Assembly (NCBI RefSeq): GCF_003334815.1
Contig: NZ_QOWO01000097.1
Direction: 5' to 3' (one strand)
From: Escherichia coli
GTDB lineage: Bacteria; Pseudomonadota; Gammaproteobacteria; Enterobacterales; Enterobacteriaceae
DNA length: 1,692 bases
In this document: piece after piece, positions 1 through 1,692 of the stretch
How positions within the stretch are numbered: position 1 is the stretch's first letter
How the letters are laid out: each line of letters opens with the position of its first letter
Made by a program: the position numbers and the translations under genes
The notes under the pieces: generated by a model
Databases searched by the model: none
What the model was told of the DNA's origin: nothing
Seen by the model: only the letters and a program-made list of their open reading frames with translations

Positions 1-23
1 GAAAAACGAGTATTTTTAGTCAT
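1..23 (-). CDS. IS3-family transposase OrfA, 5' partial (first 7 codons, M-T-K-N-T-R-F), continues beyond the window
   Basis: ATG at 23..21 on the minus strand, preceded by GAGG (Shine-Dalgarno-like) in the IS leader. Mirrors the partial CDS at 1673..1692. Confidence 0.7.
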
Positions 24-77
24 CCTGTTTACCTCTTTCTCAGGAAGTTTAGTCTCCAGGATTCCCGGGGCGGTTCA
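1..77 (-). mobile_element. IS3-family (IS629/IS1203-like) left terminus: terminal inverted repeat plus leader and start of orfA; element extends leftward out of the window
   Basis: Minus strand reads TGAACCGCCCCGGGAATCCTGGAGACTAAACTTCCTGAGAAAGAGGTAAACAGG-ATGACTAAAAATACTCGTTT, which I recognise as the IS629/IS1203 left end (IS3-family TG...CA terminus; OrfA begins MTKNTRF). Positions 4-77 are the perfect reverse complement of 1619-1692. Identification is from memory, not a database search. Confidence 0.8.
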
Positions 78-467
78 GCGCCACTGATGCAGTCACTGTA
101 TGACTGGATACAGACTCAGATGAAAACACTGTCGCGTCACTCGGATACGGCAAAAGCGTTCGCATACCTGCTGAAACAGTGGGAGGCCCTGAACGTGTAC
201 TGCAGTAATGGCTGGGTGGAAATCGACAACAACATCGCAGAGAACGCCTTACGGGGTGTGGCCGTGGGCCGGAAAAACTGGCTGTTCGCAGGTTCCGACA
301 GCGGTGGCGAACATGCGGCGGTGTTGTACTCGCTGATCGGCACATGCCGTCTGAACAATGTGGAGCCAGAAAAATGGCTGCGCTACGTCATTGAACATAT
401 CCAGGACTGGCCGGCAAACCGGGTACGCGATCTGTTGCCCTGGAAAGTTGATCTGAGCTCTCAGTAA
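78..467 (+). pseudogene. IS66-family transposase (TnpC-like), 3' fragment of about 129 codons, 5'-truncated at the IS629 junction
   Basis: Translation ...[84 protein letters not shown] carries the hallmark C-terminal motifs of IS66-family transposases ([28 protein letters not shown]). The frame stays open leftward to the IS629 end at 77/78, so the gene has lost its 5' part. TAA stop at 465-467. The Met at 87 used by the ORF track is internal, not a real start. Confidence 0.85.
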
Positions 468-469
468 AT

Positions 470-497
470 ATCAATACGGTTCTGGTGAGCCGCTTAC
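470..497 (+). mobile_element. Probable right terminal inverted repeat of the IS66-family element
   Basis: Sequence ...GGTGAGCCGCTTAC ends at 497, about 30 bp after the transposase stop. IS66-family termini are 5'-GTAAGCG...; on this strand the right end should read ...CGCTTAC-3'. The inner boundary of the repeat is not determinable without the left end. Confidence 0.55.
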
Positions 498-592
498 GCT
501 GAAATTTACACCAGATAAAAAACATACAGAAACAATCCTGTTATGTAAAATCCGGAAAAAATGTCAGAAATGTGATCAGAGTTGTGTTTTAC

Positions 593-749
593 GGAGGGGA
601 GTGCACTGCGCACGGACTAATCGGAACCTATCGGCTGAGCGATATCGATCCGGAAGCGTATCTGCCTCATATACTGAGAGTTTTGCCGGAATGGCCTTCC
701 AACCTGTTGATGAACTACCTCCATGGAACGTAGTGCTCACCAATAAATA
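593..749 (+). pseudogene. Second IS66-family transposase 3' relic, frameshifted
   Basis: One frame gives GGECTAHGLIGTYRLSDIDPEAYLPHILRVLPEWPSN, paralleling [39 protein letters not shown] in the first fragment. After about position 703 the homology continues only in the +1 frame (PVDELPPWNVVLTNK*, TAA at 747-749), paralleling [15 protein letters not shown]. This implies a 1-bp deletion. No clean ...CGCTTAC terminus follows. Confidence 0.6.
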
Positions 750-791
750 AGCGTCATGCCTAACTTAAAGTAAATAGAATAGCAGATATGC

Positions 792-1319
792 TTAATCCTT
801 TTTGTTGAGTGTCACTGGACCATAGACCATAAAAACACAAGTTGAACCAGATACTCCCCTATAACCTCCCTGTCCATCGCCGAGATAACAGGCAAGAGCA
901 GTAAATTCCCAGGCATCATCCATAGACGCAGCAATTTTGCGTGTGGTTAGTGTTTCTTTGCCATATTGCTCACCAAAGTCGTGCACGCGCCGGGCATATT
1001 CTCCAAGTGACTCGCTGACTGACGGATGGTCCCACCCCCATAACCAGGTGCTGTCTTCAGTATCGTAAGTGCCAACCACTTGAACAGGTGCTGTGACCAT
1101 GATCTCTTTTTCATCATTGGTGAAGGTGATTGTACCTGTATTAAGATCAACATCCCACGCAGCAGTATCAAGTCCCCACATTTCTATAGCGGCTTGTGTG
1201 AGTAACTGCATTTCGTTATTCGCTCGTGCAATTGTGAGATCTGGCTCTGAAAGAATTGCTGTGTTAGCACTGGAATCTTTATTCTTTCTGCCAAAAAGCT
1301 TCTTGAATAAATTAGTCAT
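792..1319 (-). CDS. Hypothetical protein, 175 aa, family not recognised; predicted soluble
   Basis: Uninterrupted minus-strand ORF. ATG at 1319..1317 is preceded by GGGAGAG with about 5-7 nt spacing. TAA stop at 794..792. The ORF track's 192-aa version begins at an upstream TTG (1370..1368) with no Shine-Dalgarno, so the ATG start is preferred. Protein: MTNLFKKLFGRKNKDSS...WDVDLNTGTITFTNDEKEIMVTAPVQVVGTYDTEDSTWLWGWDHPSV...DDAWEFTALACYLGDGQGGYRGVSGSTCVFMVYGPVTLNKKD. No long hydrophobic segment (no transmembrane helix or signal peptide evident). Confidence 0.75.
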   Translation of the reverse strand: MTNLFKKLFGRKNKDSSANTAILSEPDLTIARANNEMQLLTQAAIEMWGLDTAAWDVDLNTGTITFTNDEKEIMVTAPVQVVGTYDTEDSTWLWGWDHPSVSESLGEYARRVHDFGEQYGKETLTTRKIAASMDDAWEFTALACYLGDGQGGYRGVSGSTCVFMVYGPVTLNKKD

Positions 1320-1324
1320 TCCTA

Positions 1325-1331
1325 CTCTCCC
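1325..1331 (-). promoter_or_regulatory. Shine-Dalgarno sequence (GGGAGAG) for the 175-aa CDS
   Basis: Minus strand ...AACGGGAGAGTAGGA-ATG. Purine-rich GGAG core 5-7 nt upstream of the start codon. Confidence 0.6.
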
Positions 1332-1397
1332 GTTTTCTGCAAACACTTTGGCTGAATTATTAACGTTCAAATTTTGTCAGACATGTGTATACCCTAA

Positions 1398-1414
1398 CCT
1401 GACATCAGGCCTGA
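1398..1414. promoter_or_regulatory. Nested dyad symmetry upstream of the 175-aa gene; candidate operator or promoter-associated site
   Basis: CCTGA(1398-1402)-CA-TCAGG(1405-1409)-CCTGA(1410-1414). TCAGGCCTGA at 1405-1414 is a perfect 10-bp palindrome. Lies about 80-95 nt upstream of the ATG in an AT-rich region. A -35-like TTGAAC (minus strand, 1370..1365) and a -10-like AATAAT are nearby but not at canonical spacing. Confidence 0.3.
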
Positions 1415-1618
1415 TAATGAAAAACTATCAGAATAAAATCGTCATGAGTATTTATTGAGACAAGTAATTAAAGGTCATAGATTCATTTATGACATATTCA
1501 GGCGTGATAGCGGCATCGTGGTAGTGACTCAGTCCTTTAAACCCGCAATATAAAACGAAAAAACAGACCGTTTTTCAGAAGATTAGCGCATTTATTGAGA
1601 AGTTTAAAGGCGTGGGAG

Positions 1619-1692
1619 TGAACCGCCCCGGGAATCCTGGAGACTAAACTTCCTGAGAAAGAGGTAAACAGGATGACTAAAAATACTCGTTT
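1619..1692 (+). mobile_element. IS3-family (IS629/IS1203-like) left terminus: terminal inverted repeat plus leader and start of orfA; element extends rightward out of the window
   Basis: TGAACCGCCCCGGGAATCCTGGAGACTAAACTTCCTGAGAAAGAGGTAAACAGGATGACTAAAAATACTCGTTT. Exact reverse complement of window positions 4-77. Confidence 0.8.
1673..1692 (+). CDS. IS3-family transposase OrfA, 5' partial (M-T-K-N-T-R...), continues beyond the window
   Basis: ATG at 1673-1675, 54 nt inside the IS terminus, preceded by GAGG. Same codons as the left-hand copy. Confidence 0.7.

Follow-up and report, generated by a model that had tools for sequence, protein, structure and literature searches.

Interruption of a resident ISCro1-like IS66-family element by IS629 on an IncI1-type plasmid of Escherichia coli ECOR 3

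Source and layout of the locus

The window, that is, the whole 1,692-bp stretch of DNA that was analysed, is found with 100% identity at positions 63168–64859 of RCS85_pI (NZ_LT985321.1), a conjugative IncI1-type plasmid of 117.8 kb from E. coli ECOR 3. The public record of this plasmid already annotates the transposase genes, as IS3 family and IS66-like. The gene order is hok–tnpA–(tnpB and the 5' part of tnpC)–IS629 (minus strand)–window 78–1618–IS629 (plus strand)–lutC. The source plasmid sequence (L003) was compared with relatives that lack IS629, one of which (L002) served as reference; such relatives match window positions 78–1618 exactly. An 81-nt inverted repeat joins both ends of the window. 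IS629 accounts for positions 1–77 and 1619–1692, and the few bases of the repeat that match beyond the IS629 termini do so by chance. The features of the window are as follows.

1–77, minus strand: left IS629 copy, 77 bp of its IRL end; the whole 1,310-bp copy runs leftward from the window (L003 10768–12077); recognised by its termini (TGAACCGCCCCGGG...) and its identity to annotated IS629.
78–80, no strand: GCG, the window's copy of the 3-bp duplication made at its target site by the left IS629, corresponding to tnpC codon 395 (Ala); uninterrupted relatives have a single GCG.
78–497, plus strand: last 420 bp of an ISCro1-like IS66-family element (element positions 2285–2704 of 2,704), placed by mapping the element onto the plasmid.
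78–467, plus strand: 3' fragment of tnpC, the IS66-family transposase gene (codons 395–523 of 523, and the stop), with profile matches and 100% identity to the intact tnpC of L001, L008, L009 and L011.
477–497, minus strand: right terminal inverted repeat of the ISCro1-like element (read inward, GTAAGCGGCTCACCAGAACCG), which pairs with the left end; chromosomal homology begins at 498.
572–750, plus strand: remnant of the C-terminus of an older IS66-family transposase from an unrelated copy, cargo and not part of the ISCro1-like element; 38% amino acid identity to the 78–467 tail (E 2e-10).
792–1319, minus strand: gene for a DUF6882 domain protein, cargo, from the annotation and the open reading frame; an alternative start is annotated at 1346.
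1615–1618, no strand: GGAG, the window's copy of the 4-bp duplication made at its target site by the right IS629; relatives have a single GGAG.
1619–1692, plus strand: right IS629 copy, 74 bp of its IRL end; the whole 1,310-bp copy runs rightward from the window (L003 13619–14928) and is identical to the left copy, inverted.

The annotation treats the older remnant at 572–750 as a "transposase domain-containing protein" that is frameshifted and truncated at the N-terminus. It lies 75 bp past the right end of the ISCro1-like element and accompanies the DUF6882 gene in many STEC chromosomes. An NCBIfam profile search returned no family for this remnant or for the DUF6882 reading frame. The 91 bp at window 1526–1616 are 93% identical to part of the type I restriction hsdR genes of many E. 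coli chromosomes, and are a gene fragment lying in the spacer that separates the DUF6882 gene from lutC.

The tail of an ISCro1-like IS66-family element

The sequence-only reading had described an IS66-family transposase frame that stays open up to an IS629 terminus at 77/78 and whose 3' end and right terminus are intact, and the comparison bears this out. The frame is open from 78 to the stop at 465–467, with a product of 129 aa, and the terminus at 77/78 is fixed by the IS629-free relatives. In Pfam, the 129-aa tail matches DDE_Tnp_IS66 (PF03050; model positions 207–283 of 284, E 1.1e-24) and the IS66 C-terminal element (PF13817; E 1.4e-16). It also matches the NCBIfam profile for IS66 family transposases, NF033517, over profile positions 281–386 of 387 (E 1.2e-39), with a score of 136.5 bits; the whole-protein cutoff of 180 bits is not reached because the tail comprises no more of TnpC than its last 129 aa.

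At the nucleotide level, 78–497 is identical at 420 of 420 positions to the 3' end of intact 2,704-bp elements on related plasmids (IncI and IncF); an exact match of 420 bp lies far beyond chance expectation. The right terminus of the element is at window 497 (...GGTGAGCCGCTTAC, that is, ...CGCTTAC), and it forms an inverted pair with the left end, GTAAGCGCATC.... The two inverted repeats (left, GTAAGCGCATCATTTAAACCG; right, read inward, as listed above) are imperfect and both start 5'-GTAAGCG. Homology between the window and a chromosomal locus without an IS66 element here begins only at 498.

The tnpA, tnpB and tnpC genes are all intact at the corresponding position in L001, L008, L009 and L011, the last three sharing with RCS85_pI both the IncI backbone and the site. 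In RCS85_pI, tnpA is annotated upstream, and the three-gene organisation tnpA–tnpB–tnpC is present. Classic IS66 members have these three ORFs, and GTAAGCG-type termini are the family pattern (PMC12888890); the inverted repeat of ISPsk01, for instance, starts GTAAGCGTCC... (PMC12888890). The NCBI annotation pipeline names the intact 2,704-bp elements "IS66-like element ISCro1 family transposase", and our term "ISCro1-like" rests on this naming, not on identity to the ISfinder type sequence of ISCro1. The ECOR 3 copy shares with other ISCro1-like elements the tnpA–tnpB–tnpC organisation, the length of 2,704 bp, the imperfect GTAAGCG repeats and the TnpC tail that matches PF03050, PF13817 and NF033517. 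It differs from them in being split by IS629 and in carrying a 17-nt deletion in tnpC and an additional G in tnpB.

The frame of the tnpC tail is also open leftward across the whole visible end of IS629 (window 3–467, plus strand), which is probably meaningless; any read-out transcription from the left IS629 end would be in frame with the tnpC tail.

Two identical IS629 copies, each with its own target duplication

IS629, a member of the IS3 family with the isoforms IS1203 and IS3411, is abundant in E. coli O157:H7 and Shigella. The element that had been called IS629-like at positions 1–77 proved to be IS629: both copies at the locus are 99.5% identical over 1–1310 to features annotated "insertion sequence: IS3 family IS629". 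The two copies are 1,310 bp each, lie in opposite orientations and show 0 mismatches between them, and each is annotated as a single 1,214-nt "IS3 family transposase" CDS. In IS629, orfA and orfB are joined by a programmed −1 frameshift, whose site falls outside the window. The left junctions read ...agagctGCG / TGAACCGCC...(IS629, reverse orientation)...GGCGGTTCA / GCGccactg..., and the right junctions ...gcgtgGGAG / TGAACCGCC...GGCGGTTCA / GGAGggcat.... The second GCG thus lies beyond the far end of the left IS629, outside the window. Target-site duplications of 3–4 bp have been reported for IS629 in O157:H7 genomes (PMC3271280), and the duplications found here, GCG on the left and GGAG on the right, fall within this range. 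In length, identity and target duplications the RCS85_pI copies are thus like IS629, from whose annotated copies they diverge by 0.5% only, with no structural difference. They mark two new IS629 insertion sites on the ECOR 3 IncI1 plasmid. In RCS85_pI, searched with positions 50001–51167 left out (1,167 bp in an ABC transporter gene), these two are the only IS629 copies.

A simple insertion of IS629 into tnpC

BLAST alignment of the source plasmid with the IS629-free reference (L003 vs L002) gave three collinear blocks separated by two 1,310-bp insertions, with overlaps of 3 bp and 4 bp. Mapping of the 2,704-bp element gave the same picture, element positions 1–2287 corresponding to plasmid 59664–61934 and positions 2285–2704 to plasmid 63245–63664, with an overlap that is the 3-bp duplication. 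The homology breakpoint falls exactly at 77/78 and no base is missing at the junction. The insertion point is codon 395 (GCG, Ala) of the 523-codon tnpC. IS629 thereby divides the DDE domain in two and severs both the C-terminal element and the right inverted repeat from the rest. The sequence-only reading had suggested a search for the missing 5' part of the element beyond the left IS629. It lies directly there: the left inverted repeat, tnpA, tnpB and tnpC codons 1–395 of the same IS66 element.

Viewed alone, the window is also compatible with 78–497 being a dead-end remnant whose 5' part was lost by an IS629-mediated adjacent deletion or by recombination between the IS629 copies. Elsewhere in E. 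coli, IS3-family ends do abut N-terminally truncated IS66 tnpC fragments that have no 5' parts. In RCS85_pI, however, the 5' part stands immediately past IS629, the 3-bp duplication is present and the junction is complete, which refutes this explanation and leaves it with a negligible probability.

The two identical, inverted IS629 copies bracket a segment of 1,541 bp, as they would in a composite IS629 transposon that had moved as a unit into the site. Two observations refute such a history and make it hardly credible. The bracketed segment is collinear with, and 99.6–100% identical to, the arrangement of its neighbours in six relatives without IS629, and each IS629 copy has a separate matching duplication in place of one around the pair.

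We also considered whether the arrangement, or the orientation of the 1.5-kb segment, could be an artefact of assembly. Identical inverted repeats of 1.3 kb that lie 1.5 kb apart are a classic site of assembly ambiguity, the junctions are known from the deposited assembly, and no second record with either junction exists in PLSDB or among the complete RefSeq E. coli genomes. The pairing of the duplications would nevertheless be disrupted in an inverted or chimeric assembly, whereas all four junctions are consistent, with duplications matched in direct order and relatives collinear. We consider an artefact highly unlikely. The matched target duplications and the collinearity likewise rule out an inversion of the segment between the IS629 copies, and the pairing of the duplications shows that the 1,541-bp segment is now in its original orientation. 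This segment could invert by homologous recombination between the identical copies.

We conclude, with a probability of about 0.96, that a resident ISCro1-like element was split by a simple insertion of IS629 and that a second IS629 inserted separately, as had been suggested for the first from the letters of the window. Both copies are taken as simple insertions because each has its own duplication and because the six IS629-free relatives are collinear with the RCS85_pI locus. The most probable course of events is as follows. A 2,704-bp ISCro1-like IS66-family element resident on the IncI1 plasmid was struck by the 1,310-bp IS629, by ordinary transposition into tnpC codon 395 that duplicated the 3-bp target GCG. 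This insertion cut off the last 129 codons and the right inverted repeat (78–497) from the remainder of the element. A second, identical IS629, facing the other way, inserted 1,541 bp farther along and made a 4-bp duplication of its own, GGAG.

Neither the left nor the right IS629 junction occurs in any other record of PLSDB or the complete RefSeq E. coli genomes. Since the two copies are identical and their junctions are absent from all other records in these two collections, we infer that both arrivals are recent; the lack of any other IS629 copy on the searched part of the plasmid and of any other record with the junctions fits recent, lineage-specific events. Full-coverage matches to the left junction in RefSeq E. 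coli were rejected as instances of the same event, being composed of two pieces in which an IS3-family end lies near an IS66 tnpC fragment with a different breakpoint. In 21 genomes, one place covers 80% or more of window 1–200. In L014 (3501–3879) and L015 (3501–3741), the left end of an IS3-family element adjoins an N-terminally truncated IS66 tnpC at other breakpoints, on E. coli chromosomes and plasmids. From these alignments, the nesting of IS3-family elements in IS66 elements looks recurrent.

Nested insertion of mobile elements, as seen here, is an ordinary and known phenomenon. Like other IS-in-IS insertions on plasmids and genomic islands, the RCS85_pI locus has the transposase gene of one IS interrupted by another with the target duplication intact, and it shows no categorical difference from them. 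The nested insertion is therefore of little import in itself, insertion of one IS into another being routine on plasmids; in practice it can serve as a strain-specific marker of the plasmid lineage of ECOR 3.

Further lesions in the same IS66 copy

The IS66-family element had also been described as inactivated by IS629. The interruption of tnpC stands, and we infer that the RCS85_pI element can no longer supply TnpC. That IS629 was the inactivating lesion is not demonstrable, because the same copy carries two other changes. Once IS629 and one copy of the duplication are taken out in silico, these two changes are all that sets the ECOR 3 element apart from the intact one of L011. The first change is an additional G in tnpB at element position 1064 (L003 9560 region), 20 nt before the end of the gene. 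The second is a 17-nt deletion in tnpC at element positions 1788–1804 (L003 ~10284), flanked by GCTG microhomology. Both lie outside the window, are private to the ECOR 3 plasmid and are absent from the six relatives. IS629 is thus one of three disabling lesions in this IS66 copy, and no intermediate with only one of the three was found among the relatives compared.

The element could have been non-functional before IS629 came, the 17-nt deletion, the additional G or both having arisen first and IS629 having entered a pseudogene. The presence of both lesions in the same copy and their absence from the six relatives speak for this order, as does the GCTG microhomology, which makes the deletion look real. 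On the other side, all three lesions are private to this plasmid, so that the relatives do not fix their order, and the additional G could be a sequencing error. We give this order close to an even chance.

A proposed IS66-bounded unit with a lactate-utilisation cargo

An 8-bp target-site duplication is a defining feature of the IS66 family. None was found directly around the 2,704-bp element in the seven ISCro1-like copies compared. In RCS85_pI its flanks differ (left, AGTTTTTT; right, GCTGAAAT), and the seven copies have a common right flank (GCTGAAAT...) and three different left flanks. Membership of the element in the IS66 family is not in doubt despite its having no 8-bp duplication of its own.

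A duplication is found at a greater distance. In the IncI1 plasmid, a distal IS66-type right end at L003 22868 is directly followed by the same 8 bp as stand at the left flank (AGTTTTTT). In pMB7355_2, an IncF plasmid, the left flank is TATTCCAC, and these letters are seen again past the right end of a nested IS66-family element. The unit so delimited spans 8497–22868 of L003, with window 78–1692 inside it, and also L001 3717 to L012 2294. Empty sites reconstructed from 150 + 150 bp with one copy of the duplication are found at 100% identity over 300 bp in other plasmids of each backbone; the IncI1 site has 1,365 records, and the IncF site 2,306, that cover at least 80% of the empty-site query. 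These comparisons suggest that the unit would have entered the IncI1 and IncF backbones separately, with an 8-bp duplication each time (AGTTTTTT and TATTCCAC, respectively).

The cargo comprises the old IS66 tail remnant, the DUF6882 gene, the 91-bp hsdR-like fragment, an orphan IS66-type end, lutCBA and the L-lactate permease gene. The ECOR 3 unit appears to encode no intact IS66-family transposase, because the left element carries IS629 and the other lesions and the tnpC of the right-arm element is frameshifted.

Since the 8-bp duplication surrounds this larger unit and not the ISCro1-like element alone, the element may be an arm of a composite unit. We tentatively propose, at somewhat less than even odds, that it forms the left arm of a composite transposon of ~11.4–11.7 kb, apparently not described before, with IS66-family ends and a DUF6882/lutABC/L-lactate permease cargo, which may have transposed at least two times (IncI1, IncF) and which in ECOR 3 would be without its own IS66-family transposase. 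Our literature search found no paper linking ISCro1 with lactate. The unit appears to move a lactate-utilisation module among plasmids of the IncI1 and IncF types, which adds something modest but concrete to what is known of plasmid cargo mobility, and it is the sole part of the locus that might merit follow-up. The sequence-only reading had also taken the locus for a zone of IS accumulation, typical of plasmids or genomic islands, and this is apt for a conjugative IncI1 plasmid locus full of insertion-sequence ends.

Several further IS66-type ends were noted around the cargo. L003 19933–22868 holds a nested pair of IS66-type elements. The outer one, of ~500 bp, is internally deleted, has ends GTAAGCGTCAACGG... 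on both sides and is interrupted by a 2,436-bp IS66-family element (L003 20069–22504). This inner element has its own 8-bp duplication, GAAAAAAT, and a frameshifted tnpC. The orphan IS66-type right end (...CCGTATTGACGCTTAC) lies at L003 15007–15036, 108 bp right of the right IS629 and before lutC; it has no partner nearby, and the chromosomal version of the module has it too (L006 6225).

In p3RM8082 (L010/L013), the IS66-bounded unit stands in a third backbone context, with left flank TGCTGCCC and a matching 8-bp duplication at neither candidate right end. Copies of hok/mok/sok lie on both sides of the unit in this plasmid, which suggests that its arrangement is presumably a later rearrangement.
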